Assembly: GCA_019245575.1 (NCBI GenBank)
Contig: JAFARE010000009.1
Span: forward strand, 17,403-81,402
Direction: 5' to 3'
Length of the DNA stretch: 64,000 nt
DNA from: Candidatus Dormiibacterota bacterium
GTDB lineage: Bacteria > Chloroflexota > Dormibacteria > Aeolococcales > Aeolococcaceae
Part shown: positions 17,147 to 61,903 of the stretch, one piece after another
Layout: each line of letters begins with the position of its first letter
Numbering within the stretch: the first letter of the stretch is position 1
Position numbers and translations under genes: made by a program
The notes under the pieces: generated by a model
Databases searched by the model: none
Seen by the model: the letters and a program-made list of their open reading frames with translations, nothing else
What the model was told of the DNA's origin: nothing

Positions 17147-18843
17147 CCAGATTCCGCAAGCTTCGCTCGGCCTCGCTGCTCGCGCTGGGCGGATACGCTG
17201 CGGCTGCGCTGGTGCTGACCGCGCCCGCGTGGCTCCATGCGACGACGTCGTGGCCGGGCAACGTCGGCGATCCGTACAAGTTCATGGACTGGCTCGCATG
17301 GATTCCGCACGCCGTCGCTCATTTTCAGAATCCATTCTTCAGCAGCGCCGTCGATGCGCCGCGTGGCGTGAACCTGGCGTGGGAGACGACCGTTCCCCTG
17401 GGCGCAATCCTCGTCTGGCCGGTCACCGCGACGCTCGGTCCGATAGCCGCGTACAACGTCTGGCTGCTGGTCGCCCTGACGCTCGACGGCTGGTGCACGT
17501 ACGTGTGGCTGCGCCGCCATGCTCGCGGCGCGGCGGCCTTCCTCGGCGGCCTCACATTCGCGCTCGGCCCGTATCTGGTGACGCACAGCTACAACCACCT
17601 CAACCTCGTGTCCGCGTTTCCGATTCCGCTCCTGTTCCTCGTCATTGACCGATTCGTCGCCGGTTCGCTCACGTGGTGGAGAGCCGGGATGGCGGCAGGC
17701 GTGCTCGCCGCCGCACAGCTCTATCTGGCCGAAGAGCTGCTCGCTCTGGCCGCGATCGGACTGGTGGCGGCGCTGTTGGTTGCACTTCCATCGCACCCGC
17801 CGACGCTTGTGCGTGTTGCCAGGGCTTCGGCCCTGGCGATCGTGACGTGCGCCGTGCTCGCCGGTCCGATGCTGGCCTTTCAGTTCTTCGGTCCACTGGC
17901 GGTGCACGGCGCGATCCAGCCAAGCGACGTCTACGTCACCGATCTGCAGAACCTTTTCGTTCCGACCAGGCTGACGTTGCTCCATCCCGGGACCGTGAGC
18001 ACAGAGCTGGCGAGTGCCTGGACCGGCAACCTCGGGGAACAGACGGGGTATGTGAGCATCCCGCTGCTGCTGCTGACCGCCTACGCGCTGTGGCGGTGGT
18101 GGAGGGAACCACTCGTGCGCGTCGTTGGTGGCGCGTCGTTGCTGCTGCTGGTGCTGAGCCTGGGCCCCCATGTTCATGTGGGCGGCTCGACGTCGATACC
18201 TCTTCCCGGTCTCATCCTGATGCGGCTGCCGGTGGTGGACCACATGCTGCCCGCGCGGCTCTCGCTGATTGCCGCGATGGGCCTGGCCCTGCTGCTGGCG
18301 CTGACGCTGGATCGGACCGTGCTCGCATCGCCGCGCCGAGCGGTGACGGGCAGCGTGCTGGGTGTGCTCAGCGTGATCGCGCTCATTCCCACGGCGCCCA
18401 TCCCGACGTCGACGACCGACGTGCCCGCCTACTTCACCGCAGACGACGGTGCTCGCGCGCTGCCCAGGGGGACCGTCGCGCTTGTGCTGCCGTACATCGA
18501 CGACGGCGGCGCAACAGCGGTGCCGATGCTCTGGCAGGCTGAGTCCGACTTCCATTACTCCATGGTCGACGGCCTGGCCATCACGGTCGCGCCGAACGGT
18601 CACTCAGCATTCCTCGTCGACAGCCCGCTCCGCTCTGCGTTGCACGACATCCAGGTGACGGGCAAGCCACCGCCTGAGACAGACGATCTGAAGCGGACCC
18701 TCGACGCCGTCCTCAATGGCGACCACGTGTCGTTGATCATCGTCGGCCCCATGCCGAATCGCGGCGCCGCCGAATCCTTCGTGAGCTGGCTGACCGGCTC
18801 GCCGCCGCAGCACTCGTCCGGGGTCAGCATCTGGCGGTGGTGA
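17050..18843 (+). CDS. large polytopic membrane protein, function unassigned (possibly a GT-C/YfhO-like envelope glycosyltransferase)
   Basis: About 12 or more hydrophobic helices followed by a C-terminal soluble domain. Start is uncertain. ATG 17050 overlaps pfk by 97 nt. The next canonical in-frame start, GTG 17212, would delete the RFRKLRSASLLALGGYAAAALVL signal-anchor. A CTG at 17143 forms a CTGA overlap. Confidence 0.6.
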   Translation: MRRGGDRQDRRRGRRATARPARPLRAGTGLLLTRFRKLRSASLLALGGYAAAALVLTAPAWLHATTSWPGNVGDPYKFMDWLAWIPHAVAHFQNPFFSSAVDAPRGVNLAWETTVPLGAILVWPVTATLGPIAAYNVWLLVALTLDGWCTYVWLRRHARGAAAFLGGLTFALGPYLVTHSYNHLNLVSAFPIPLLFLVIDRFVAGSLTWWRAGMAAGVLAAAQLYLAEELLALAAIGLVAALLVALPSHPPTLVRVARASALAIVTCAVLAGPMLAFQFFGPLAVHGAIQPSDVYVTDLQNLFVPTRLTLLHPGTVSTELASAWTGNLGEQTGYVSIPLLLLTAYALWRWWREPLVRVVGGASLLLLVLSLGPHVHVGGSTSIPLPGLILMRLPVVDHMLPARLSLIAAMGLALLLALTLDRTVLASPRRAVTGSVLGVLSVIALIPTAPIPTSTTDVPAYFTADDGARALPRGTVALVLPYIDDGGATAVPMLWQAESDFHYSMVDGLAITVAPNGHSAFLVDSPLRSALHDIQVTGKPPPETDDLKRTLDAVLNGDHVSLIIVGPMPNRGAAESFVSWLTGSPPQHSSGVSIWRW

Positions 18844-18856
18844 GCAGGGTCGTCGC

Positions 18857-19030
18857 GCTGCGGGGTCCTGCCGCCTCAGGGAACCCTCGCCGTCCTGCGC
18901 AGGATTCCACCCCAGGTCTTCGGATGCGCCCAAGGACTCTCGTGGTGATGCGGGCGCGCGTGACCGTCTGACCTGGGTCCCGGAATCCTGCTCCGGCCGG
19001 CGCTGCCCCCTAAGGCGTCACCCGCGCAGC
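18857..19030 (-). repeat. copy A of an unclassified structured intergenic element (candidate ncRNA / 3'UTR element or MITE-like repeat)
   Basis: The reverse complement aligns with 24151-24339 and 61374-61571 (core GCGCCGGCCGGAGCAGGATTCCGGGACCCAGGTCAGA...CACGAGAGTCC...AGACCTGGGGTGGAATCCTGCGCAGGACGGCGAGGG). It folds as a long rod closed by GCTGCGGGG/CCCGCGCAGC. Confidence 0.8.
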
Positions 19031-19050
19031 CGAGATGATGCTGATGGCCG

Positions 19051-20082
19051 CTACGCGGGCGACCAAGCCGGGGGTGACGTGGCGTCGAGGTCGAGGTTCT
19101 GCGTCACCTGCTTCGGCGGTTTCGGCGTCAGGCCTGCGGCACCGTCGATCCACCAGAGCTGGAAGTGTCCCGTCGCATCAGCGGGCGCGTAGTACACGAG
19201 GCTGCGCCCGTCCGGCGACCACTGCGGCGAGGAGCAGAGGCAGTTGTCGACCAGCGTCCGGGGTGTGCCCAGCGTGGTGCCCGTCAGCGGCGCCACCTCC
19301 AGCCGCGTGCTCTGCAATCCGGTGCCGCCGGTGCAGACCATCGCAAGCTGCGTGCCATCGGGAGACACGGCCGGCTGGCCGCAGTCGTCGGTGTCGTTCG
19401 TGAGGTACACCGGGTCCGCGCGCGCCCGGGTATCGATTGCGAGACGCGAGTACACGTTGCCGCCACTGATCTCGTACTTGGAGTAGAGCAGCGCGCCGCC
19501 GGGAAGCGGCACCGGGGCGACGTCACCACCGGTGTAGCTGAACGGGTCGGTCCACTGTTTCGACGCGATCTTGCCGGACAACGGACCCGCCCAGACCGCG
19601 AACTCGATCTCGTAGCTCTGGATCGACTTGGGCGAGTCGTAGCTGACGTACAGCGTCTGCCCGTCGGCGCTGAGGCGGGGCCAGAACATCCAGTGGTTGA
19701 GCTGGATGGTCGAGCTCGTCGTGGCGTTGTGGCTCAGCTGGTTGATCACGGTCCCGGCCACACCGTCGATTTGGAACACCTCCGAGTACGCGGCCGTGCG
19801 CATCACCGCCACGATGTCGTTGGTGCCGGGCACGATTGCGGGCTGCATCCACGTTCCGTTCTTGGGCAGGCGCAGCGCAGTGAAGGTGCCCCTGTTCAGC
19901 TTGTACATCACGCCCTGCTGGGCCACGTAGATCGTCCCGGGCAGCACGAACGCCGGCTTGCTCACGGTCGGCGTCGACGCTTCCGCGACGTGCGCCTTGC
20001 GCAGCGCGAAGAACCGGTTCACGCCGAAGGCGAACGCGCCCATCAGCGCCAGGAGAACGACGATCGTGAGTGCCCGCCTCAC
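19051..20082 (-). CDS. TolB-like beta-propeller (PD40/WD40-like repeat) protein with N-terminal membrane anchor
   Basis: N-terminal TM helix (ALTIVVLLALMGAFAF). Repeated ...SPDG..L.. / SADGQTLYV / SPDGTQLAMV / SPDGRSLVYY blades. GTG start, 10 nt downstream of the LCP gene. Confidence 0.7.
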   Translation of the reverse strand: MRRALTIVVLLALMGAFAFGVNRFFALRKAHVAEASTPTVSKPAFVLPGTIYVAQQGVMYKLNRGTFTALRLPKNGTWMQPAIVPGTNDIVAVMRTAAYSEVFQIDGVAGTVINQLSHNATTSSTIQLNHWMFWPRLSADGQTLYVSYDSPKSIQSYEIEFAVWAGPLSGKIASKQWTDPFSYTGGDVAPVPLPGGALLYSKYEISGGNVYSRLAIDTRARADPVYLTNDTDDCGQPAVSPDGTQLAMVCTGGTGLQSTRLEVAPLTGTTLGTPRTLVDNCLCSSPQWSPDGRSLVYYAPADATGHFQLWWIDGAAGLTPKPPKQVTQNLDLDATSPPAWSPA

Positions 20083-22126: not shown

Positions 22127-23799
<1,673 letters not shown>

Positions 23800-23821
23800 T
23801 CCGCGTCACGCCCAGCGTCTG

Positions 23822-24139
23822 ATGCCGAACACGTTCACCCGTGTGCCGGTGCGCCCGGTGCCGCCGCTCGGGCCCGCGGCCCGCCTGTGCGTGCCGGTGG
23901 CGGACGCGTTCATGGTGCTCATGCTCTCGCGCCCGTCGACCAGGTCGCTGCGCACGACGTGGGTCACGCCCGCAACGCTCGGGCTCGCGGTCGCACTGAC
24001 ACTGATCCTCGCCGCCGCGGCCGTGGAGCTCATCGTCAGCGGGACGATCCTGCGCGTGATCATCGGCGCGATCCTGCTCGTCGCAGCGATGGGTCCGCTC
24101 GCAGTGTCGGTCGTCGGGACCGAGCAGCGTTTGCGCTGA
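23822..24139 (+). CDS. hypothetical small membrane protein
   Basis: High GC3 ORF with two predicted TM helices (LGLAVALTLILAAAAVELIV; VIIGAILLVAAMGPLAVSVV). No recognisable family and an uncertain start. Confidence 0.4.
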   Translation: MPNTFTRVPVRPVPPLGPAARLCVPVADAFMVLMLSRPSTRSLRTTWVTPATLGLAVALTLILAAAAVELIVSGTILRVIIGAILLVAAMGPLAVSVVGTEQRLR

Positions 24140-24150
24140 GTTGGCGCACC

Positions 24151-24339
24151 AAGGCGCTTTCGCTCGGGTGGTGCCGTGGGGGGAGGCGCCGGCCGGAGCA
24201 GGATTCCGGGACCCAGGTCAGAGGGACACGCGTCTTCGCATGAGCACGAGAGTCCTCGGGCGCATCCGGAGACCTGGGGAGAATCCTGCGCAGGACGGCG
24301 AGGGGTCCCCACGGCGACAGGACCCGAGCGAAGCGCCTT
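24151..24339 (+). repeat. copy B of an unclassified structured intergenic element (candidate ncRNA / 3'UTR element or MITE-like repeat)
   Basis: Helices P1 24151-24168/24323-24339, P2 24172-24181/24307-24316, P3 24198-24206/24281-24289 and P4 24212-24219/24271-24278. The apical domain carries the invariant CACGAGAGTCC. Confidence 0.8.
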
Positions 24340-24344
24340 AGCCT

Positions 24345-24563
24345 TCAGCCTCTTAGGCGTAGCACCAGGTTGATCACGACCGTCAGCACGATGCTGACGA
24401 CGATGCACGTGACGATCGGGAAGGCGACCGAGACGTTGCCGCGTGACACCGCGATGTCGCCGGGGAGGCGGCCGAGCCCGAGGCGCGCGCCGACGATGAG
24501 CACCGCGCCGGCCAGCGCGAGCGCGAGCCCCGTGATCAGGAGCAGCTTGCCGATGTCGCTCAT
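24345..24563 (-). CDS. DUF2905 family small membrane protein
   Basis: 72 aa: MSDIGKLLLITGLALALAG...LGRLPGDIAVSRGNVSVAFPIVTCIVVSIVLTVVINL. The GRLPGDI motif between two TM helices is typical of DUF2905. Confidence 0.7.
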   Translation of the reverse strand: MSDIGKLLLITGLALALAGAVLIVGARLGLGRLPGDIAVSRGNVSVAFPIVTCIVVSIVLTVVINLVLRLRG

Positions 24564-26213: not shown

Positions 26214-27544
26214 ACGTGATCCTCCGCGGCGTGCGCGTGATCGACCCGCTCGCGGGTGTCGACCGCGCGCCTCAGGACGTGTGGATCGAGGCCGGTCGCA
26301 TTCGCGCGCTTGACGACCGCATCGAGGCCGGCGGCGTTCCGGTGATCGACTTCACGCGCGCCGGCGGCGAGCCCGTGGTGCTCTGCCCCGGCTTCATCGA
26401 TCTGCACGTGCATCTGCGCGACCCCGGCGACTCCGGCGCGGAGACGACGGCGACCGGCGCGCGCGCTGCCGCGGCCGGCGGTTTCACGCACATCGTCGCG
26501 ATGGCCAACACCGATCCCCCACACGACTCGCCCGAGCTGCTGCGCGACGCGATCGAGCGCTCGCAGAACGCCGCCGTGCGCGTGATGCACGTGGCGGCGA
26601 TGACGCACGGCCTCGACGGTGCGGCGCTTGTCGATGTCGAAGCATGCATCGGCGCGGGCGCGGTCGCGCTCAGCGACGACGGGCGCAACGCGGCCCCGGG
26701 CGCGCTGCTGTCGGAGGCGCTGGCGCGCGCCGGTGAGCTCGGCAGGCCGGTGCTGGTGCACCCCGAGGACGAGGCGGCGATCTCGCGGTTCAACCCCTTC
26801 GGTGGGGTGACGCGCTGTTCGGACCGGCCGCCGGAGACGGAGGTGGCCGCCGTGAAAGCAGCGGTCAAGGCGCTCGCCTCCACGGCCGGCGGCAGGCTGC
26901 ACCTGCAGCATCTCTCGGCCGCGGGTTCGCTGGAACCGCTGCGCCTGGCGCGCCAGCGCGGGCTAACCATCACGGCGGAGGTGACGCCCCACCATCTCGC
27001 GCGCTGGGCCGCGATGTCGCCTCCGGAGCCGGCTTCCCTGCGCAAGGTGAATCCGCCGTTGCGCAGCGCGAACGATCGCGCGGCGATGCTGCAGGCGCTG
27101 CTCGACGGCACCATCGATGCCATCGCCACCGACCATGCGCCGCACCGCTCCGACGAGAAGACGAACAACTACGACTCGTCGGCGCCGGGGATGATCGGGC
27201 TCGAGACAGCCCTCGCGGCGTGCATCACGCTCGGCGACCTCGCCGGCCGCCGCCTGCCCGTGTTGGTGGAGCGCCTGACGGCGGGACCGCATCGAGTGCT
27301 CGGCGAGGCGAGCGGTGTGAAGGAGCCGCGCGTGCGTGTCGGCGAGGTCGCGGACATCGTGGTGTTCGATCCCGACGCCGGCTGGACGGTGAGCGACGAC
27401 ACGCTCTTCTCGCGCTCGCGCAACACACCCTGGCTGGGCACGGAGCTGCGCGGCCGCGTGCTGCTCACCGTCGCACACGGACGCGTGGTGCACAGCCTGG
27501 ACGCGCGCATCCCGGTGGCGGACAGGGAGCCGGCCGGTGTCTGA
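26210..27544 (+). CDS. pyrC: dihydroorotase
   Basis: FIDLHVHLRDPG metal-binding motif and DHAPH motif (ATDHAPHRSDEK). GTG 26210 forms a GTGA overlap with the pyrR stop. Confidence 0.9.
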   Translation: MNVILRGVRVIDPLAGVDRAPQDVWIEAGRIRALDDRIEAGGVPVIDFTRAGGEPVVLCPGFIDLHVHLRDPGDSGAETTATGARAAAAGGFTHIVAMANTDPPHDSPELLRDAIERSQNAAVRVMHVAAMTHGLDGAALVDVEACIGAGAVALSDDGRNAAPGALLSEALARAGELGRPVLVHPEDEAAISRFNPFGGVTRCSDRPPETEVAAVKAAVKALASTAGGRLHLQHLSAAGSLEPLRLARQRGLTITAEVTPHHLARWAAMSPPEPASLRKVNPPLRSANDRAAMLQALLDGTIDAIATDHAPHRSDEKTNNYDSSAPGMIGLETALAACITLGDLAGRRLPVLVERLTAGPHRVLGEASGVKEPRVRVGEVADIVVFDPDAGWTVSDDTLFSRSRNTPWLGTELRGRVLLTVAHGRVVHSLDARIPVADREPAGV

Positions 27545-30500
27545 GCGGCGGGGCGTGCTCGCGCTCGAGTCGGGTGCGACGTTCGAGGGCGTGCTCTTCG
27601 CCGCACCGCCGGACGGCGCCGTCCACGGCGAGGTGGTCTTCAACACCTGCATGACGGGCTACCAGGAGGTGCTCACCGACCCGTCGTACGCCGGCCAGAT
27701 GGTGGTCATGACCTACCCGCTTATCGGGAACTACGGATGTCGCGACGACACCGCTGAGTCGTACCGAGTGCACAGCCGCGCGCTGCTGGTGCGCGAGCTG
27801 TCACCGGACATCGGTCACGGCCGCGCCGAGCGGTCGCTGGAGGAGGAGCTGGCGCGCGCCGGTGTCGCGGGCATGCGTGGTGTGGACACTCGCGCGTTGA
27901 CACGCCACCTGCGCGACCGAGGGACGCTGCGCGGCGTCATCGCCGCTGCGGACGCGGCATCGCACGCGGAGCTCGTTGCGGCTGCCCAGTCGGCGCCGCA
28001 CGTGAGCGACGAGGACCTGGTCGGCGAGGTGTCGCTGCGCGAGCCCTGGGTGCGCTTCGCGGAGCGCCTCGACCCCACGCTCCATCGCGGTGTCGAGCTG
28101 GCAGGGACGGCTGACGCGTTCCGCGGCACGCGAGTCGTGGTGGTGGACTACGGCGTGAAGCGCAACCAGCTTCGCGCGCTGTGCAGCCGCGGTGTCGACG
28201 TGATCCTTGTGCGGCAGGACGCGCGCCTCGACGACGTGATGCGCCACGAGCCCCACGGCGTCATCCTGTCCAACGGCCCTGGTGATCCGTCGCGCCTGCC
28301 TCACGCAGTGCAGCTCTGCCGCGAGCTGCTCGACCGGCGAGTGCCGATGCTCGGCATCTGCCTGGGACACCAGATCCTCGGGCAGGCAGCGGGGGCGTCG
28401 ACGTCGCGGCTGAAGTTCGGCCACCACGGCGGCAACCACCCGGTGCGCGACGACGCCGGCGGCGCCGTCTATGTCACGTCGCAGAACCACGAGTTCCAGG
28501 TGGATGCGGCATCGTTGCCTCACAACTCCGGCTGGTACGTCAGCGAGCGCAACCTGAACGACGGCTCCGTCGAAGGGCTCCGCCACCGCGAGCTGCCCGC
28601 CTTCAGCGTCCAGTACCATCCGGAAGGAGCACCAGGCCCCCAAGATCGCGCCGGCGTCTTCGACGAATTCCTGGAGATGTGCGTCGATGCGCGGGGGTGG
28701 GCCATGCGTCGGCGGCGAGTTCCGGGTGCGAGCGAGGACCGCGCCAGCATTGCCGGAGGCGATGGCGCGGGACGAGCCGCAGCCCGGGTGTCTGAGCAAG
28801 ACGATGCATGGCCCACCCCCGCGGAGACCACATCGTCCGATTCGGCGAAAACGCCGGTCGATAAGCCGCAGTGCGTACTCGTCATCGGTAGTGGGCCCGT
28901 CGTCATCGGTCAGGCCGCGGAGTTCGACTACGCGGGCACGCAGGCGTGCAAGGCCTTGCGCGAGGAGGGCGTGCGGGTCGTGCTCGTGAACAGCAACCCG
29001 GCGACGATCATGACCGACGACTCCTCAGCGGACGCGGTGTACGTCGAGCCGCTGACCCTCGACGTGCTGGAGCGTGTCATCGAGCAGGAGCGCCCCGACG
29101 GGCTGCTGGCGACGCTCGGCGGCCAGACCGGGCTGAACCTCGCGGTGGCGCTCGACGACGCGGGGATCCTGAGGAAGCACGGCGTGCGTGTGCTGGGCAC
29201 ACCGCTGAGCGCGATCCGCTCGGCGGAGGACCGCGAGCTGTTCAAGGAGCTGTTGCGATCGATCGGCGAGCCGGTGCCGACGTCGCGGACGGTTTCCACG
29301 CTGGCGGAGGCGCGCGCATTCCGTGAACGCGAGGGTTTGCCGCTGGTGGTGCGGCCGGCGTTCACGCTGGGCGGCACGGGCGGCGGACTCTGCGAGACGG
29401 ACGAGCGGTTTCTCGAGATCGTTGCCGCCGGTCTCGCCGCGTCGCCGATCAACCAGGTGCTGGTGGAGCGGTCGCTCGCCGGCTGGCGTGAGATCGAGTA
29501 CGAGGTGATGCGCGACGCAGCCGGCACGTGCATCACCGTCTGCAACATGGAGAACCTCGACCCGATGGGCGTGCACACGGGCGACTCGATGGTGGTCGCT
29601 CCATCGCAGACGCTCACCGACCGCGAGCACCAGCAGCTGCGCAGCGCAGCCCTGCGCATCATCAGCGCGCTGGAGATCGCGGGCGGTTGCAACGTGCAGT
29701 TCGCGCTGGCGCCGGACTCGCACGAGTACCACGTCATCGAGGTCAACCCTCGCGTGTCGCGGTCCTCCGCGCTGGCCTCGAAGGCCACGGGACATCCCAT
29801 CGCTCGCGTTGCGGCGAAGATCGCCGCCGGGCGGCGCCTCGATGAGATTCCCAACGCGGTCACGGGCAAGACGTGCGCCGCATTCGAGCCCGCCCTCGAC
29901 TACTGCGTGGTGAAGATCCCGCGCTGGCCGTTCGACAAGTTCCCCGACGCGGATCGGCGGCTGGGCACGCAGATGAAATCGACCGGTGAGGTGATGGCCA
30001 TCGAGCGGTCGTTCGAGGCGGCGTTCAGCAAGGCACTCCGGTCGCTCGAGCAGACGCCGCCGGACCCGTCGCTCCTGCACGAGCCGGTGCTGGTGGACGT
30101 CGCCAACGACCGGCGCGCATTCGCGATCCTGGAGGCGCTGCGCGGCGGCGAGGACCCGGTGGCGGTCGCCGGGCGCAGCGGCATCGGCGCGTGGTTCCTG
30201 CGCCGGCTCGCCGCCATCGTCGAGTGCGAGGAGCGCCTCCGGTGGAACGGCCTCGACGACGACGCGCTGCGCATGGCCAAGCGGTATGCGCTGAACGACG
30301 CGCGCATCGCATCGCTCACGGGAACCACGGACGCGGCCGTGCGGGCGCGACGGGGCGAGCTGCGGCTCCAACCGGTGTACAAGTGCGTCGACACCTGCGC
30401 TGCGGAGTTCGAGGCGGCGACACCGTACTTCTACTCGACGTTCGAGGTGGAGAACGAGAGCCGTCCTGCAGCGGGCGGCCGTGAATCCGTCGTCGTCGTG

Positions 30501-32123
30501 GGCAGCGGTCCCATCCGCATCGGCCAGGGGATCGAGTTCGACTACTGCAGCGTGCAGGCAGCCGCATCGCTGCGCGCGCACGACGTCGACTCCGTGATGG
30601 TGAACAGCAATCCCGAGACGGTGAGCACCGATTTCGACTGCAGCTCGCGCCTCTATTTCGAACCCCTCGACGAGGAGGCGGTGGCCGCGGTCATCGAGGA
30701 GGAGCGCGCCGGTGGCGCCGTGGTGCAGTTCGGCGGCCAGACCGCCGTGAACCTCGCCGCACCGCTGCACCGCCGCGGGGTGCGCGTGCTCGGCACGCCC
30801 GTCGACGCCATCGACACCGCCGAGGATCGCCGCGCGTTCGAGGCGCTGATGCGTGAGCTGGAGATCCCGCAGCCGCACGGCGCCGCCACCCTGGACCTGG
30901 CGGAGGCGATGGCAATCGGCGAGCGCATCGGCTACCCGGTGCTGGTGCGGCCGTCGTTCGTCCTCGGCGGACGCGCCATGGAGATCGTGCACGGGCCCGA
31001 GTCGCTGCGGCGTTACATGGACGCGGCCATGGCGGCGCTGCCGACGGAGGGTGGCGAGCGGCGCGGCGCGGTGCTCATCGACCGCTATCTCTTCGGGACC
31101 GAGCTGGACGTGGACGCCGTCGCCGACGGCGAGACCGTCGTGATTCCCGGCCTCATGGAGCACGTGGAACGCGCCGGCGTGCACAGCGGCGACTCGATGG
31201 CCGCCTATCCCGCGCGCATGCTGAGCGACGAGGTGCGCAACCGCATCGTGGAGCACACGGTGAGCATCGCCCGCGCGCTGGGTGTGCGCGGGCTCTGCAA
31301 CATCCAGTTCGTCGTCTACCGCGGTGTGCCGCACGTGCTCGAGGTCAATCCGCGCGCCTCGCGCACGGTCCCGTTCCTCAGCAAGGTGACCGGCGTTCCC
31401 ATGGTGGAGCTGGCCACCCGCGTTATGCGCGGCGAGACGCTGCTCGACCTGGGCTGGACCACGGGACTCGTGCCCGCCCGCCCGCTCGTCGCCGTAAAGG
31501 CGCCCGTCTTCTCCACGGTCAAGCTCACCGAGGTGGACACCGCGCTGGGTCCGGAGATGAAGTCCACCGGCGAGGTGATGGGCATCGATGTCGACCTCGG
31601 CGCCGCGCTGGAGAAGGCATTTCTCGCCGCGCTCGGCGGCGTCCCCCTGGGTGGCGGCGCGCTGTGCAGCGTGGCCGACGTCGACAAGGCGGACGCCCTG
31701 CCGATCCTGGCCCAGCTCAGCGCGCTGGGCTTCACGCTCTACGCCACCGCGGGCACCGCTCGCGCCCTGGCCGACGCCGGCGTGAGCGCGGTGCCGGTGG
31801 GGAAGATCGGGCACGGCCGGCCCAACGTCATCGATGTGATCGAGGAGGGGCGCGTGTCGCTGGTGGTGAACACGGTGTCGCACCTGGGCACGGACGAGAT
31901 GGAGTACGGCGGCGACGGCCGCGCGGCGATGGCTGCGGGCCGCACGGTGAAGGACGGTTACCGCATCCGCCTCGCGGCGGAGCAGCGGCGTGTTCCCTGC
32001 TGCACGTCGCTGGACACCGCGGCGGCGCTGGTCGATGCGATCAGCCGTCACCTCGGCGGGGCCAGTGTGCGCGTCGCGCAGGTGCGCTCCTACCGCGAGG
32101 GCCTGGTGAGCGCGACCTCATGA
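27537..32123 (+). CDS. carAB: carbamoyl-phosphate synthase with small (CarA) and large (CarB) subunits fused in one 1528-aa ORF
   Basis: aa 1-~386 are CarA (GICLGHQ Cys, VQYHPEGAPGP His/Glu). aa ~387-445 form a low-complexity linker. aa 446-1528 are CarB (VLVIGSGPVVIGQAAEFDYAGTQ..., two ATP-grasp halves, MGS-like tail). There is no in-frame stop between the domains. Confidence 0.85.
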   Translation: MSERRGVLALESGATFEGVLFAAPPDGAVHGEVVFNTCMTGYQEVLTDPSYAGQMVVMTYPLIGNYGCRDDTAESYRVHSRALLVRELSPDIGHGRAERSLEEELARAGVAGMRGVDTRALTRHLRDRGTLRGVIAAADAASHAELVAAAQSAPHVSDEDLVGEVSLREPWVRFAERLDPTLHRGVELAGTADAFRGTRVVVVDYGVKRNQLRALCSRGVDVILVRQDARLDDVMRHEPHGVILSNGPGDPSRLPHAVQLCRELLDRRVPMLGICLGHQILGQAAGASTSRLKFGHHGGNHPVRDDAGGAVYVTSQNHEFQVDAASLPHNSGWYVSERNLNDGSVEGLRHRELPAFSVQYHPEGAPGPQDRAGVFDEFLEMCVDARGWAMRRRRVPGASEDRASIAGGDGAGRAAARVSEQDDAWPTPAETTSSDSAKTPVDKPQCVLVIGSGPVVIGQAAEFDYAGTQACKALREEGVRVVLVNSNPATIMTDDSSADAVYVEPLTLDVLERVIEQERPDGLLATLGGQTGLNLAVALDDAGILRKHGVRVLGTPLSAIRSAEDRELFKELLRSIGEPVPTSRTVSTLAEARAFREREGLPLVVRPAFTLGGTGGGLCETDERFLEIVAAGLAASPINQVLVERSLAGWREIEYEVMRDAAGTCITVCNMENLDPMGVHTGDSMVVAPSQTLTDREHQQLRSAALRIISALEIAGGCNVQFALAPDSHEYHVIEVNPRVSRSSALASKATGHPIARVAAKIAAGRRLDEIPNAVTGKTCAAFEPALDYCVVKIPRWPFDKFPDADRRLGTQMKSTGEVMAIERSFEAAFSKALRSLEQTPPDPSLLHEPVLVDVANDRRAFAILEALRGGEDPVAVAGRSGIGAWFLRRLAAIVECEERLRWNGLDDDALRMAKRYALNDARIASLTGTTDAAVRARRGELRLQPVYKCVDTCAAEFEAATPYFYSTFEVENESRPAAGGRESVVVVGSGPIRIGQGIEFDYCSVQAAASLRAHDVDSVMVNSNPETVSTDFDCSSRLYFEPLDEEAVAAVIEEERAGGAVVQFGGQTAVNLAAPLHRRGVRVLGTPVDAIDTAEDRRAFEALMRELEIPQPHGAATLDLAEAMAIGERIGYPVLVRPSFVLGGRAMEIVHGPESLRRYMDAAMAALPTEGGERRGAVLIDRYLFGTELDVDAVADGETVVIPGLMEHVERAGVHSGDSMAAYPARMLSDEVRNRIVEHTVSIARALGVRGLCNIQFVVYRGVPHVLEVNPRASRTVPFLSKVTGVPMVELATRVMRGETLLDLGWTTGLVPARPLVAVKAPVFSTVKLTEVDTALGPEMKSTGEVMGIDVDLGAALEKAFLAALGGVPLGGGALCSVADVDKADALPILAQLSALGFTLYATAGTARALADAGVSAVPVGKIGHGRPNVIDVIEEGRVSLVVNTVSHLGTDEMEYGGDGRAAMAAGRTVKDGYRIRLAAEQRRVPCCTSLDTAAALVDAISRHLGGASVRVAQVRSYREGLVSATS

Positions 32124-37696: not shown

Positions 37697-39277
37697 TTGT
37701 CATGTCCGCGAACCGTCCGTGGCCCAGGCCGATCATTGAGCGTGTCGTACGAGACCGGCTGGCTTGTCTTCGCGCTGCTCGCCGCGGCCTTCGTCATCGC
37801 CCGACGTCAGCTGTCAGACGCCGTGACGGGCTGGCTCACGCGGCTGCTTCGCCACGCGGCGCGCGTTCCCCATCCGCCGCCGCGCGCCACACACTGGGCG
37901 CGCGCCGGCGCGCCGCTTGCGCTGCGCGGCGCCAGGCGCTCGCGACACACGTTCACGCTGGGTTCGCGCGGCCGGACGCGTGTGCGCCTGCGCGCGGAGA
38001 GCAGCGTGCTCGTCATCGGCCCCACACGGTCGGGAAAGACCAGCGCGCTGGTGGTGCCCAATCTCCTCACGTGGCGGGGACCGGCAATCGCCACCAGCAC
38101 CAAGGCCGAGCTGGTCGACGTCACGGCGGGGTACCGGCAGACACGCGGGCCCGTGTACGTGTACGACCCGACCGCGGAGATGTCGGCGCGCTGCGAGTCG
38201 CTGCGCTGGTCGCCGATCGCGGGATGCGAGAGCGTTGACCACGCGTGGCGGGTCGCAGCATGGCTCAGCGGCGCGCTGCAGCAGCAGGGGCGCGCCGACA
38301 ACGACTGGGCGCACTGGGCGGAATCGGCCAAGCTGCTGGTGGCGCCACTGTTTCACGCCGCGGCGCTGACGGGACGCAGCATCAACGACGTCTGCGCCTG
38401 GATCCACGCGTTCGACCTGGGCGCGGCGGCGTCGCTGCTCGAGGACATTGCGGAGGGTGATGACCCGGCGCGCGCGCAGGACGCCGCACGCGCGCTGTCG
38501 ATGCTGACAGCGGTGGACCAGCGACCGGAGAAGGAGCGCGGCACGGTGTTCTCCACCGTGATGCGCCTCTTCAGCGCATTCAACGAGCGCGCGGTCGCGG
38601 AATCCGCGTCGTGGAGCCGATTCAACGCCCAGGACTTCCTGCGGCGCTCGGGCACGCTGTACCTCTGCACGCCGCGGCAGTCCCCGGAGCGCATCGCGGC
38701 GCTCTTCGCCGGGCTGCTCATGACCGTCGTCACCGCCGCGTATGCGATGGCCGATGCAACGCGCGCCGGCGCCCTTGAGCCGCCGCTCGGCCTCTTTCTC
38801 GACGAGCTCGCCAACGTGGTGCCGGTCGAGGACCTCCCGTCACTCGCATCGCAGGGCGCGGGACGCGGCGTGGTCCTGATGTCGATCGTGCAGGACCTCA
38901 GCCAGCTGCGGTCGCGCTACGGCAACGAGCGAGCCAACTCCATCCTCAACAACCACGTCTGCAAGGTCGTGCTGCCGGGGATCACGGACCCGGACACCGC
39001 GGATGTGCTGTCTCGGCTGCTGGGCCACCGCGAGCACACCGAGGTGCAGGTGACGCGCGGCGGTGACGGACGCACGACGCACTCGTACGTGCGCCGCCGC
39101 GAGCCGCTCGCGACAGCCGACGCGCTGCGCCAGCTGGCCCCGGGCAGCGCCGCCGTGCTGGACGGCGGGGCGCCGCCCATGCTGGTGCATCTCGGGCCAT
39201 GGTTTCGCAGCGCCGCGATGCGCGAGCTCGCCGCGGCGCCATACCTGCGATATGCGGAGGAGGTGCCGGCGGCGTGA
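37697..39277 (+). CDS. type IV secretion coupling protein-like ATPase (TraG/TraD/VirD4 family)
   Basis: N-terminal TM helix (WLVFALLAAAFVIA), Walker A VIGPTRSGKTS, Walker B LGLFLDELANV, and the family-typical SIVQDLSQLRSRYG...ILNN segment. Start is uncertain: TTG 37697, TTG 37736 or GTG 37742. Confidence 0.75.
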   Translation: MSCPRTVRGPGRSLSVSYETGWLVFALLAAAFVIARRQLSDAVTGWLTRLLRHAARVPHPPPRATHWARAGAPLALRGARRSRHTFTLGSRGRTRVRLRAESSVLVIGPTRSGKTSALVVPNLLTWRGPAIATSTKAELVDVTAGYRQTRGPVYVYDPTAEMSARCESLRWSPIAGCESVDHAWRVAAWLSGALQQQGRADNDWAHWAESAKLLVAPLFHAAALTGRSINDVCAWIHAFDLGAAASLLEDIAEGDDPARAQDAARALSMLTAVDQRPEKERGTVFSTVMRLFSAFNERAVAESASWSRFNAQDFLRRSGTLYLCTPRQSPERIAALFAGLLMTVVTAAYAMADATRAGALEPPLGLFLDELANVVPVEDLPSLASQGAGRGVVLMSIVQDLSQLRSRYGNERANSILNNHVCKVVLPGITDPDTADVLSRLLGHREHTEVQVTRGGDGRTTHSYVRRREPLATADALRQLAPGSAAVLDGGAPPMLVHLGPWFRSAAMRELAAAPYLRYAEEVPAA

Positions 39278-39288
39278 GCCGCGATATT

Positions 39289-40344
39289 TCAGCGGCGCCG
39301 CAGCGCCAGCATCTCGTCGGCGAGGTCGTCCAGCGTCGACTGCATCACGCCGCGTATCGGCGTGGCGCGCACCTCGGCCACGACCGCATCGAGTGATGCG
39401 TTGTTCGCAGCCGCGTCCTCGAGCAGGATCTCGAGACGCAGCGACGAGTGGTGCAACCGCTCCTGCACCAGGCGCTTCAACTCAGGAAGCAGCTCGGCCA
39501 CCGTTTCCGACGCCGGCGGTCCGACCGGCACGAGCTCCGGCCGGGGCGGCGGAGGCTGCTGGGGCACGCCGAAGATGTTCGTGACCCCGCCGTCCTCCTC
39601 CGGTGCGGCGACCGGCGGCTCGATGCGGTGGCCCGAAGCGGCGGGCGGCGCGTCCGTCGCCTGTGTGCGCACGGCGTCCTGCAGCACGCGGATGGTGCCC
39701 GTGCCGGACGCCACGAGCTCGTCCACCAGCGAGGGGTCGCCCAGCTCGCGGTGGCGGTCCGTGTAGGTCGCAACCTGCACGCCGTCGCGGATGCTGCTGA
39801 CACCGCGGCCCGCCGCGGTGTTGAGCTCGACGATGTACGTGCCGGTGCGGGCGCGGATGTCCGCGAGCAGCCGGCTCCAGATGATCCAGTCGAGGCGCAG
39901 GTCGGCGTACAGCGGGTCGCCCCGCACCAGGGGCGGGAGCGCCTCCACCACGTTCGCCTGCAGGCGCCACGCCGAGACGATCGCGTCCTCCCAGCTGCGG
40001 ATGCGGGCCACCGCCTCCTCTCCCGCGGCGCGGTGCTCCGGCTCCACGGCGTAGTGCTCGCTGATGCGGCCCCCGCGGATGAGGATCACGCCGACGCCGG
40101 GCGAGCGCCGGATGACGATGAGCCCGTCGCCGATCACGGGGGCGAGCGCCTCGAGGACCAGCGCCCGCGCGGGCAGATCCTCGAACACGGTGTCCCCGCG
40201 CGGCAGCAGCGGGATGATGTCTGGGGCCGGGACCGTTGGGGGCTTGTAGAAGGGGGCTGTGCTGAGGTCTCCGCTCACGGCCCGGTATCGTAGCTTTCGC
40301 AACGCCGCAGCGTGGAGCGCAGTTGTGCGGCGCCTCGTGAACAC
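39289..40344 (-). CDS. hypothetical protein (no family assigned with confidence)
   Basis: High GC3 ORF. Two ~90-aa segments loosely resemble DUF4388/roadblock-type modules (...GLIVIRRSPGVGVILIRGGRISEHYAV...; ...GTYIVELNTAAGRGVSSIRDGVQVATYTD...). These are followed by a Pro-rich linker and a helical C-terminus. GC3 rises only after an alternative GTG start at 40278. Confidence 0.6.
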   Translation of the reverse strand: MFTRRRTTALHAAALRKLRYRAVSGDLSTAPFYKPPTVPAPDIIPLLPRGDTVFEDLPARALVLEALAPVIGDGLIVIRRSPGVGVILIRGGRISEHYAVEPEHRAAGEEAVARIRSWEDAIVSAWRLQANVVEALPPLVRGDPLYADLRLDWIIWSRLLADIRARTGTYIVELNTAAGRGVSSIRDGVQVATYTDRHRELGDPSLVDELVASGTGTIRVLQDAVRTQATDAPPAASGHRIEPPVAAPEEDGGVTNIFGVPQQPPPPRPELVPVGPPASETVAELLPELKRLVQERLHHSSLRLEILLEDAAANNASLDAVVAEVRATPIRGVMQSTLDDLADEMLALRRR

Positions 40345-53742: not shown

Positions 53743-54012
53743 CCCGTCTCGTAACCCGATCCCGTATCGCGTGTTGTCGGGGATGGATCGAGAGCACTGC
53801 GGTCGCCTCCCCGAGGTGGCGCCCAGTACAACAACCGGTCCGCCCCCGGCCAAGGCTGGGCGCCTCTTCGGGGTGGCGCTTGGGCTCCGCGCACAAGACT
53901 GAGCCTCCCGACTTCGTGCGCGAATCACCTCGAATCTGAGCCGCCGGCGGGATAGCCTCGCTCGAAAGCAAGGAGGGCTTCGAGCCCGAAACGCCCGACA
54001 GGAGGACTTCGC

Positions 54013-55495: not shown

Positions 55496-55867
55496 GTGGT
55501 GAAGAAAGTGGAGGCCGTGATCCGACCCGACAGACTGCAGGCAGTCCAGGACGCTCTCGACGCGCTGGGCACATCGGGCCTCACCGTCATCGAGGTGCTG
55601 GGGTGTGGGCGCCAGCGCGGCTACACCGAGACGTACCGCGGCGCGCGGGCCAACATCTCGCTGCAGCGCAAGGTGAAAGTCGAGGCGGTGGTGGCGGACT
55701 CGTCCGCCGCCGCTGTCGTCGACGCCATCGCCGGCGCGGCCAAGACCGGCGAGGTCGGCGACGGCAAGATCTTCGTGCTGCCCGTCGAGGAGGCGATCCG
55801 CATCCGCTCGGGAGAGCACGGCGAGGACGTCGTACGTCATCTCCAGCCCGAACACTGGGGGCACTGA
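55496..55867 (+). CDS. glnK: P-II nitrogen regulatory protein
   Basis: KKVEAVIRPDRL..., T-loop GRQRGYTETYRGA, TGEVGDGKIFV. Adjacent to amt. GTG at 55496 or 55499. Confidence 0.9.
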   Translation: MVKKVEAVIRPDRLQAVQDALDALGTSGLTVIEVLGCGRQRGYTETYRGARANISLQRKVKVEAVVADSSAAAVVDAIAGAAKTGEVGDGKIFVLPVEEAIRIRSGEHGEDVVRHLQPEHWGH

Positions 55868-56066: not shown

Positions 56067-56093
56067 CAGGGCCTTGGTAAACTCGGGCAGGAG

Positions 56094-56384
56094 ATGACGT
56101 ACGTCGTTACCGAGACCTGCATCGACCTCAAGGACAAATCCTGCATCGAGGTGTGTCCGGTCGATTGCATCCACGAGGCCGACGAGGACCGCATGGTCTA
56201 CATCGACCCGGATGAGTGCATCGACTGCGGCGCCTGCGTGGACCCGTGCCCGGTCGACGCCATCTACGCCGAGGAGGACGTGCCGCAGCCGCAGCTGCCC
56301 TTTGTCGAGATCAACAAGGTCTACTTCAAGGACAAGGGCACGGCCCGCGGCAAGGTCGACGCGGTCAAGGCGCCGGCGGGCTGA
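56094..56384 (+). CDS. fdxA: 7Fe ferredoxin (3Fe-4S + 4Fe-4S)
   Basis: [27 protein letters not shown]...[19 protein letters not shown] 56094 is preceded by GGCAGGAG. Confidence 0.9.
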
Positions 56385-60557: not shown

Positions 60558-61364
60558 ATGCAGGTGCGCGATGCGCGCCAGGCGATGCTCGACGTGGCCG
60601 CGGCCGACGGCGACATCGCCACGGGTGCGCTCTGGCTCGCGGCGGAGGACTGCCCTGGCGTCGAGCCCGACCCGTGGCTCGAGCGCATCGACGAGCTCTC
60701 GCTGGAGCTCCGTGATCGCTGCGGGATCGACGGATGCCGGCCCAGCGACGCTCCGCTGGTGGCGCCCCTCCTGCGCGACAAGCTGCGTCTGCACTGCGCC
60801 GGCGGCGGCGACCCACAGTCGCACTACCTGCACAGCGTGCTCGAACGCGGCGCCGGCATCCCGATCGCCTGCGCTGCGATCTGGATCGCTGTGGGGACGC
60901 GCGCCGCCATCCCCGTCGAGGGGGTGAACACTCCCGGCCACTTCCTCGTGCGGGTCGGTGACCTGCTCTTCGACACGGTCGCCGGTGGCGAGCCGCTCGG
61001 CGAGGAGGACACGCGAAGCCTCATCGGCGACGCCATCGGTCACAAGCCCGACCGCTTGCAGCAGTCGTGGCTGCGACGGGCGACCACACGCGAAATGCTT
61101 GCTCGCATGTCGCGCAACCTGCGCGGCTGCTACACCTGCCTCGAGCAGTGGGACCTGGCGCTGCGCGCCGCCGACCGCTGCGTCGACCTCATGCCGGACG
61201 CGCCGGCCGAGCGGCGTGACCGCGGGTATCTCCTCTGGCGCATGGGCAGGCCCAGCGCGGCGCTCGAGGACCTCCGCCATTACCTCGACGCCGCGCCCGC
61301 GAGCGCGCCGGATCGCGACGCGGTCGACGAGGTGGCGTCGCGGCTGCGCGCGTTCCTGAATTAG
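60558..61364 (+). CDS. SirB1/YchA-like protein (transglutaminase-like N-domain + TPR-like C-domain)
   Basis: GAGIPIACAAIWIAVGTRAAIPVEGVNTPGHFLVRV resembles the UPF0162/SirB1 core. C-terminal helical repeats. Confidence 0.7.
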   Translation: MQVRDARQAMLDVAAADGDIATGALWLAAEDCPGVEPDPWLERIDELSLELRDRCGIDGCRPSDAPLVAPLLRDKLRLHCAGGGDPQSHYLHSVLERGAGIPIACAAIWIAVGTRAAIPVEGVNTPGHFLVRVGDLLFDTVAGGEPLGEEDTRSLIGDAIGHKPDRLQQSWLRRATTREMLARMSRNLRGCYTCLEQWDLALRAADRCVDLMPDAPAERRDRGYLLWRMGRPSAALEDLRHYLDAAPASAPDRDAVDEVASRLRAFLN

Positions 61365-61373
61365 TCGCGCAAG

Positions 61374-61571
61374 CTGAGCAAGGGTTGTGTGCGGGTGACG
61401 CGGTGGGGGGCCGCGCCGGCCGGAGCCGGATTCCGGGACCCAGGTTAGAAGTCTTCGCGCTATCGCGCGAACACGAGAGTCCACGATCGCCACCCAGACC
61501 TGCGGTGGAATCCGGCGGAGGACGGCGAGGGGTCCCCGAAGCGGCAGGACCCGCGGACAACCCTTGCTCAG
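61374..61571 (+). repeat. copy C of an unclassified structured intergenic element (candidate ncRNA / 3'UTR element or MITE-like repeat)
   Basis: A 15-bp outer helix CTGAGCAAGGGTTGT (61374-61388) / ACAACCCTTGCTCAG (61557-61571). P3 is GCCGGATTCC (61425-61434) / GGAATCCGGC (61507-61516). It shares the core blocks of copies A and B. Confidence 0.8.
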
Positions 61572-61903
61572 CGCGCCCCGATCACGAACGCGAGCAGCCA
61601 CACGAGGCCGACCACGACCAGCACCGCGAACGGCATCGCCGCGAAGACAACGAAGGAGAAGACGATGCGCTCGTCGCTCACACGCGCGGGGTCCGCCCGG
61701 CGCACGCGGGCGTCGCGCACGTACCAGGCGAGACCACCGACGATGAAGCCGAGCAGCAGGAAGAAGATGCCGGCGAATGCGCTGCTGATGCCGACGCGGC
61801 TGGGCGCCAGCGTGACGCGCCACAGCGCTCCGAGGCTGATCGCGAGGACGCCGCACGAGATGAAGCGGCCGAGCACCGGTATCAGTCGGGGACCGGCCTG
61901 CAC
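61568..61903 (-). CDS. hypothetical membrane protein
   Basis: 111 aa, three to four hydrophobic helices, high GC3, no family assigned. Its stop codon lies inside the outer helix of repeat copy C. Confidence 0.5.
   Translation of the reverse strand: MQAGPRLIPVLGRFISCGVLAISLGALWRVTLAPSRVGISSAFAGIFFLLLGFIVGGLAWYVRDARVRRADPARVSDERIVFSFVVFAAMPFAVLVVVGLVWLLAFVIGAR

Follow-up and report, generated by a model that had tools for sequence, protein, structure and literature searches.

A lineage-restricted hairpin repeat inserted downstream of genes in Dormibacterota, with arms that are inverted copies of neighbouring DNA

Intergenic hairpin repeats and the Dormibacterota element

The closest described systems include the MITE-like hairpin repeats of bacteria, among them Correia in Neisseria, ERIC/IRU in enterobacteria, bcr1, RUP and Nezha (reviewed in PMC3184786), which carry terminal inverted repeats of their own and are bordered by short direct duplications of the target (TA, for example). 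The REP, BIME and REPIN palindromes form another group, together with the RAYT transposases (PMC3337134), and REPs have been described as 3'-UTR regulators (bioRxiv 10.64898/2026.03.23.713779). REPs are extragenic palindromes of 20–40 nt with a conserved GTAG head that follow stop codons, often between convergent genes, evolve in concert and are thought to act on mRNA 3' ends; in REPINs the arms are conserved and the loop is variable. Palindromes can be extended or perfected by template switching within quasi-palindromes, a well-established source of mutation in which the nascent strand folds onto itself at an imperfect inverted repeat and uses the other arm as template (PMC7202029, PMC3820800, PMC8604942). 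The switching leaves clustered 'compensatory' changes without selection, and the documented events change few nucleotides. Snap-back priming and rolling-hairpin replication follow the same fold-back extension logic. In parvoviruses the rolling hairpin is a mode of viral genome replication that uses a Rep nickase, and the terminal hairpin primes its own strand to give the arrangement X - hairpin - reverse complement of X.

The element described here was found in a stretch of 64,000 nt (hereafter the window, the whole of the DNA analysed) and has so far been seen only in one lineage of Candidatus Dormibacteraeota (Dormibacterota, an uncultivated phylum). It behaves much as the MITE-like and REP-like intergenic hairpin repeats of bacteria do, and its unusual feature is an inverted duplication of gene tails. 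In common with MITE-like repeats it is small (100–250 nt), non-coding, dispersed in many copies and lineage-restricted, lies between genes near their ends, is present or absent at orthologous sites (copies A, B, C and L008) and would form an imperfect rod in read-through transcripts. It differs from them in that its own ends pair over about 5 bp, while its long outer helix stems from inverted duplication of the target, coding sequence included; no direct target-site duplication was seen at the copies, where the longer flanks are inverted duplicates. The Rfam, plasmid and phage searches revealed no sequence similarity to MITE-like families. With REPs the element shares its position after stop codons, often between convergent genes, and evolution in concert, but unlike REPs and REPINs it has a conserved 160-nt centre and variable arms, which sets it outside that class, and no RAYT turned up in the DNA examined. 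It also departs from documented template-switch events, which change few nucleotides, by carrying 15–60 nt of new inverted sequence at every copy, and from parvovirus rolling hairpins, as no such Rep protein or free linear form is known for it. Nor does it resemble a retron non-coding RNA, since it adjoins housekeeping genes rather than a reverse transcriptase gene, or a canonical intrinsic Rho-independent terminator, since it has no U tract.

Copy C, on which this analysis centres, occupies 61374–61571 between two genes that converge on it, a SirB1-like ORF on the plus strand (60558–61364) and the ORF of a 111-aa membrane protein on the minus strand (61568–61903). A preliminary description had presented it as the most divergent copy of a structured element, and all of the coordinates, helices and base changes given there are present when the sequence is read directly. 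The outer helix is, as proposed, a perfect 15-bp pairing between CTGAGCAAGGGTTGT (61374–61388) and ACAACCCTTGCTCAG (61557–61571), its 5' arm lying 9 nt past the SirB1-like stop and its 3' arm enclosing the membrane-gene stop codon (61568–61570), as the ORF coordinates bear out. An independent repeat finder returned arms of 24 nt with 92% complementarity (61373–61396 / 61549–61572). The features of the three window copies are as follows.

61367–61392, plus strand: 5' arm of copy C (perfect part 61374–61388), inverted duplicate of the opposite side
61393–61552, plus strand: conserved core of copy C, GGGTGACG ... CACGAGAGTCC ... CAGGACCC, from the 10-copy alignment, covariance model and fold (61392–61553 if the closing C-G pair is counted)
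61425–61435, plus strand: 5' strand of helix P3, pairing with 61506–61516; A>C compensated by T>G
61439–61446, plus strand: 5' strand of helix P4, pairing with 61497–61504; U.G at alignment pair 64/116 and C.C mismatch at 58/122
61455–61482, plus strand: apical domain, hairpin TCGCGC-TATC-GCGCGA (61455–61470) followed by CACGAGAGTCC (61472–61482)
61553–61575, plus strand: 3' arm of copy C (perfect part 61557–61571), native intergenic DNA and the membrane-gene end
24166–24325, plus strand: core of copy B, with arms 24151–24165 and 24326–24339; convergent DUF2905 stop at 24345–24347
18863–19023, minus strand: core of copy A, with arms 19024–19050 and 18844–18862, between the stop of a PD40 gene (19051–19053) and that of a 597-aa membrane protein gene (18841–18843)

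As RNA, the plus strand of the copy C region folds at -122.4 kcal/mol against -88.0 ± 4.9 for shuffled sequences (z = -7.0), a value matched by 0 of 200 shuffles, and the minus strand at -111.7 kcal/mol (z = -6.6). A covariance model built from 10 copies, a check that had been advised at the outset, matched copy C at 160 bits (E = 2.5e-30); this is the lowest score of any copy, against 169–193 bits, and 19.6% of core positions differ from the consensus, so that the copy is indeed the most divergent. P3 of copy C reads GCCGGATTCC (61425–61434) / GGAATCCGGC (61507–61516) where copies A and B have GCAGGATTCC / GGAATCCTGC, and the reported A>C change matched by T>G is real; the pair concerned (45/133) is AU in seven copies and CG in two, copy C and L012. 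The C>T change in P4 likewise keeps its pair. The broader claim that all helices are kept goes somewhat too far, as copy C breaks 6 of 53 consensus pairs, the C.C mismatch in P4 included. Similarly, the apical hairpin that had been called private lies where it was placed but is not entirely private, the GCG change that creates it being common to L007, and the block called invariant, CACGAGAGTCC, is present in copy C, but outside the window its invariance and that of CCGGGACCCAGG hold by construction because the search pattern required both exactly.

The family comprises 11 distinct loci with a core of ~160 nt, three in the window, which its flanking proteins assign to a Candidatus Dormibacteraeota MAG, and eight on metagenome contigs. 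All non-window copies were retrieved with a strict pattern of exact CCGGGACCCAGG plus exact CACGAGAGTCC, which matched 12 contigs in two JGI metagenome samples, eight of them with new copies and four representing the DNA of the window itself, and none of 185,579 GTDB species at one genome per species; as the pattern demands two exact core blocks, diverged relatives would be missed. A relaxed, independent GTDB pattern yielded 17 loci in unrelated taxa, all of which the covariance model rejected. Over the window the model finds no copy beyond A, B and C. Rfam 15 gave no match at gathering score for the whole window, nor at E ≤ 10 for 61300–61650, and neither a plasmid collection (blastn) nor viral contigs matched the element. 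A tRNA/tmRNA scan found nothing, so a tRNA-derived, SINE-like origin was rejected, and 1-nt indels between aligned core copies rule out a conserved reading frame, so the element is non-coding. Our literature search returned no description of such an element, nor of inverted target duplications in bacteria.

Each copy lies 7–32 nt after a stop codon, which is that of the copied gene wherever this gene is known, and the neighbours are housekeeping genes (dxs, SirB1-like, DUF2905, PD40, ftsK, queF, spoVS and otsA). The window ORFs scanned include no transposase, reverse transcriptase or HUH protein, and no mobilising enzyme is apparent among the ORFs adjoining the other copies, a few of which were checked against Pfam. 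The only mobility gene among the window ORFs scanned (37697–39277) encodes a type IV secretion coupling protein (T4SS-DNA_transf, TraG-D_C, TrwB_AAD_bind); it stands amid housekeeping genes next to a gene for a 351-aa protein with no Pfam match (39289–40344), and the region may be the remnant of an integrated conjugative element.

Insertion at gene ends and the source of the arms

Related Dormibacteraeota keep the same gene pairs without the element at the sites of copies A, B and C and of the ftsK copy, in relatives that stand at 72–93% protein identity and are not the direct ancestor. At site C the order dxs, SirB1-like gene and convergent gene for a 111–120-aa membrane protein is kept in L013–L017, and the interval between the last two genes, 203 nt in the window, is a spacer of 10 nt in L013 (88% protein identity), 33–34 nt in L014–16 (79%) and 16 nt in L017 (73%). 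Site A is an empty spacer of 15 nt in L035 (86%) and of 6 nt in L036/37 (72%), site B, between the methylmalonyl-CoA mutase and DUF2905 genes, is empty in L036/37, and the copy downstream of ftsK (L008) is absent from L041 and L042, in both of which ftsK ends ...LGEE* and the DNA continues without the element. The covariance model finds no element in any of the empty orthologous loci. Copy C is an insertion, present or absent at orthologous sites, and more precisely a recent insertion of a lineage-restricted hairpin repeat rather than a vertically inherited structured RNA gene. The opposition drawn in the preliminary description between a functional RNA and recent repeat copies is therefore a false one, as copies A, B and C are all insertions absent at the relatives' sites.

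The cores are 79–96% identical between copies, whereas the flanks are unrelated between copies and yet pair, 5' with 3', within every one. Over the first 30 nt cognate flanks pair at a mean of -34.6 kcal/mol, compared with -19.4 ± 4.9 for non-cognate flanks, and the signal extends to 30–60 nt in some copies. The origin of the pairing is visible in six copies (C, L002, L003, L006, L007 and L008), where one arm holds the native stop codon of the neighbouring gene, in most cases together with its native last codons, and the other arm is the inverted duplicate. The 3' arm of copy C extends into TCAGCGCGC; this sequence, the stop plus the final two codons (..AR*) of the 111-aa membrane gene, is native, since it can be aligned to the end of the orthologous gene in L014 and L013. 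The 5' arm, GCGCaaGCTGAGCAAGGGTTGT, is the inverted copy; it begins 2 nt past the SirB1-like stop, includes the complement (GCTGA, GCGC) of the membrane gene's native end and is absent from the empty sites of L013–L017. In L008 the arm adjoining ftsK consists of the native last 7–8 codons, the stop and a 10-nt spacer, ...LGEE* being native in relatives, and a diverged inverted copy of the FtsK tail lies beyond the core in non-coding DNA. In L003 the SpoVS tail (a Pfam match to the profile end) occupies one arm and recurs in inverted form in the opposite arm, and L006 (DsbD-like), L007 (OtsA) and L002 (QueF) behave in the same way; the SpoVS and OtsA tails are native, with end-to-end Pfam matches.

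The rule governing the arms is thus gene-centred: whichever gene ends beside the core has its tail duplicated in inverted form across the core. When the far flank is scored for an inverted 'stop + 27 nt coding tail', C, L006, L007 and L008 reach 14–17 against 7.1 ± 1.6 (maximum 12) for non-cognate flanks, the score of copy C deriving in part from an unrelated native repeat of two coding tails. As in template switching, the new arm complements the native arm exactly or almost exactly in C, L003, L008, L007 and L006, and the bases that immediately flank the core are inverted rather than direct (TC..GA in B; CC..GG in L003 and L008). Because the arms are unrelated between copies and include native stops and codons, they must have been made at each site by inverted duplication. 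The outer helix is locally copied and is not kept by slow compensatory change, so the earlier statement that the helices are maintained by covariation stands, as a modest but real signal, for the core and fails for the outer helix.

Several observations bear on when the arms were made. Five of six empty sites fold no better than shuffles (z = +1.1 to -2.6 overall, with L013 the exception), the empty-site spacers of 6–34 nt are too short for both arms, and a window-wide census found no hairpin at a gene end comparable to the arms: three perfect stems in the 64 kb reach 11 bp with loops of up to 40 nt, and none is longer and unoccupied. Together these indicate that the arms arise with or after insertion. 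Arm identity ranges from 67 to 100%, with most copies at 67–85%, and does not track core divergence; copy C has the most diverged core yet the most perfect arm, while L006 has an almost consensus core and arms at ~78%. A single history of duplication at insertion followed by joint decay would consequently require gene conversion or repeated arm renewal, and copy C argues that an arm can form, or be renewed, whatever the age of the core.

Other inverted repeats occur at or near the copies. The last codons of the two genes that converge on copy C, SirB1-like (RLRAFLN*) and membrane (LLAF[LV]IGAR*), themselves form an imperfect inverted repeat of ~18 nt (61341–61361 and 61578–61597), which is also found in the empty L013 (3029–3095). 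A relic of an older element was considered and rejected for this repeat, as SirB1 proteins with as little as 58% identity retain the C-terminus GRLRAFLN; it looks coincidental, or may be a native hairpin. Upstream of copy B a 123-aa ORF (23768–24139) has no Pfam match and no counterpart in L036, and its TGA, the inverted counterpart of the DUF2905 stop codon, falls in an outer, weakly paired extension of the 5' arm; unless this ORF is spurious, it owes its stop to the duplication. In L002 the QueF gene (893–1528) runs ~23 residues past the QueF domain match into the arm, with an internal repeat (ATCGCGCGAT...), and the insertion may have remodelled the QueF C-terminus.

Elsewhere in the window, an unrelated rod of 144 nt (28685–28828; 22-nt arms, 95% complementary and 90 nt apart) folds at -103.1 kcal/mol (z = -9.15) and is not matched by the covariance model of the repeat. 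It lies ~383 codons into a 1528-aa ORF (27537–32123), roughly at the expected small-chain/large-chain junction of a putative fused carbamoyl-phosphate synthase, the ORF being assigned by synteny with L036, and may represent either a palindromic insertion that stayed in frame or a remnant of the joining of two genes. Arms of 25 nt, 92% complementary and 231 nt apart (55827–55851 / 56083–56107), overlap the end of a P-II gene and the start of a ferredoxin gene, and a 23-nt, 87% hairpin with a 29-nt loop (53804–53826 / 53856–53878) follows directly on a PucR-like regulator gene.

Covariation, strand bias and mosaicism of the core

The core rod of the 10 aligned copies contains 53 pairs in seven helices, and 96.0% of its cells are standard pairs. 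Changes on both sides affect six pairs (nine cells), compared with 1.9 ± 1.2 pairs (2.0 ± 1.3 cells) in shuffles and at most three pairs and four cells in slid registers. Most of this covariation falls in helix 2 (columns 17–29 / 150–162) and in the P3 pair; helices 3 and 5 hardly vary and so carry little information. The core rod is real and conserved, with modest covariation. It also changes more slowly than its own flanks, which are DNA at least as old: in the stem part, 0–6 of 112 positions differ from the consensus in eight copies, 11 in B and 15 in C. Only C-GGGT / ACCC-G is conserved at the ends of the core, pairing over ~5 bp, and the core as a whole is a quasi-palindrome with conserved bulges.

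Single changes within helices, read on the plus-strand sense of copy C, produce G.U 14 times and A.C three times, although several of the G.U changes are shared by descent and the 14:3 count therefore overstates their independence. The same sense folds better in 10 of 10 copies. The bias suggests that one strand matters when single-stranded, as RNA or as ssDNA. Relative to the copied gene, the better-folding strand is antisense in five of six informative copies, so that read-through from the gene would transcribe the weaker-folding strand, and a simple 3'-UTR function of the copied gene does not explain the G.U bias.

The cores are also mosaic. In a four-gamete test 59 of 78 informative column pairs show all four combinations, and the minority variants of copy C are common, at different columns, to A and L002, to A and B, to B, to L012, to L007, and to L005 and L008. 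This suggests gene conversion or exchange between copies, and conservation of the core could then be explained by concerted evolution or gene conversion without a host function. Template switching in a DNA quasi-palindrome yields 'compensatory' double changes in a single step (PMC7202029, PMC8604942), and compensatory-looking changes in a DNA palindrome can therefore arise without selection on RNA. The element has neither a promoter consensus nor that of a U-tract terminator, no T run follows the hairpin on either strand, and a terminator scan found nothing there; it is possible that the element acts as a terminator lacking a U tract.

A fold-back model for the arms and its alternatives

The interpretation in the preliminary description is thus supported in part, and the question becomes what kind of element would combine a conserved core with locally derived arms. 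The reading that we favour, and regard as probable, is that copy C is an insertion of a small non-autonomous mobile hairpin repeat whose arms arose by hairpin-primed synthesis of local DNA. The element proper would be the ~160-nt core, an imperfect rod located from a few up to ~30 nt beyond a stop codon. The 15–60-nt arms would not belong to it, one being local DNA (spacer, stop and often the last codons) and the other its inverted copy. An arrangement of X - hairpin - reverse complement of X would result if a strand ending in the hairpin folded back and extended on itself, by intrastrand template switching or snap-back priming, either during insertion or afterwards through extension of the quasi-palindrome. 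Gene conversion between copies, selection on the single-stranded, G.U-bearing strand, or both, may keep the cores alike. The outcome would be a hairpin with a stem of ~100 bp that starts at or inside the gene end and is present in any read-through transcript. Between convergent genes such a hairpin probably serves as a barrier at the 3' end or as an insulator, and the analogy with REP, ERIC and Correia elements makes a terminator, insulator or mRNA-stabilising effect plausible. We infer this mechanism and function, that is the copying process, its single-stranded intermediate and the effects on transcripts, from 11 copies.

Possible, though on balance doubtful, is a more specific mode of spread, undescribed in bacterial mobile DNA, in which a hairpin single strand (an RNA-derived cDNA or ssDNA) is joined just downstream of a gene and its fold-back 3' end is extended along the target, leaving an inverted target-site duplication. 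Each transposition would then build a hairpin of ~100 bp onto a gene end, as in rolling-hairpin replication. Target-primed reverse transcription would have gained support had the native tail invariably lain 3' on the G.U-bearing strand. Copies C, L002, L006, L007 and L008 follow this polarity, but L003, with the SpoVS tail in its 5' arm, weakens the strict rule, and a split of 5 to 1 is not significant. Orientation set by the direction of replication was also considered and rejected, as copy A is opposite to B and C despite a steady skew (GC skew positive in 12 of 16 4-kb bins, with a cumulative sum that rises without sustained reversal).

Weighed against hairpin-primed copying, it appears unlikely that the copies are host non-coding RNA genes or cis-acting 3'-UTR RNAs in which all helices are selected through compensatory mutation. 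Such genes would account for the pairing and covariation of the core, the preponderance of G.U over A.C changes, the better folding of the same strand in every copy, a core stem much better conserved than the adjacent arms and the location of all copies at gene 3' ends. They would not be expected to be absent at the relatives' orthologous sites, to escape detection in the GTDB species genomes by two independent patterns, or to lack any Rfam match even at E ≤ 10 and any promoter or terminator consensus. The outer arms, moreover, are copies of local coding sequence and not diverged homologues, the better-folding strand is mostly antisense to the copied gene, and the mosaic cores indicate gene conversion.

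It is improbable that the core instead targets the loops of long hairpins, such as terminators, already standing downstream of genes, in which case the arms would be older host hairpins. Arms that are often more diverged than the cores would fit such a history, insertion sequences that target REP palindromes are known (PMC1525189), and site C does have its native imperfect inverted repeat, shared with the empty L013. That repeat, however, looks coincidental in that it involves the ancient SirB1 GRLRAFLN, and the empty sites, with their 6–34-nt spacers, form no significant fold except in L013. One arm of L008 and of L003 is conserved coding sequence copied into non-coding DNA, the relatives' DNA downstream of ftsK has no such copy, and the 64 kb offers no unoccupied hairpin with a perfect stem of more than 11 bp. 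A chimeric or fold-back sequence produced by metagenome assembly is very improbable. The window does come from a metagenome-assembled genome, and library or assembly errors can create palindromes, but 11 distinct loci share the same core with site-specific flanks, and at least four records that were assembled independently (an NCBI MAG, JGI 3300021953, ENA ERZ27313774 and the window) carry an identical copy C. It is base-for-base the same in a strain whose surrounding 9.9 kb is at 98.1% identity, as it is in three other assemblies. A protein look-up intended to extend the window's contig returned only the 10.9-kb contig of the sister strain. Between that strain (GCA_019242035.1) and the window 1.9% of positions differ over 9.9 kb, and copy C with its flanks (window 61300–61650, L038 7281–7631) shows 0 differences in 351 positions where ~6–7 would be expected.

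The repeat adds a family to the Dormibacterota, a phylum known only from metagenomes. Standard transposition models do not generate inverted duplicates of gene tails together with their stop codons, and this signature appears to be undescribed for ordinary bacterial repeats. A duplication formed at insertion would point to a new mode of movement for small hairpin DNA; one formed later would make the copies an unusually clear natural record of palindrome growth by template switching. For RNA discovery the family carries a warning, as a variable but always paired outer helix mimics textbook covariation and here comes from local copying. For the host, burying a stop codon and last codons within so long a stem could have consequences for termination, ribosome release or mRNA decay, and the essential genes affected in this way could include ftsK and otsA.
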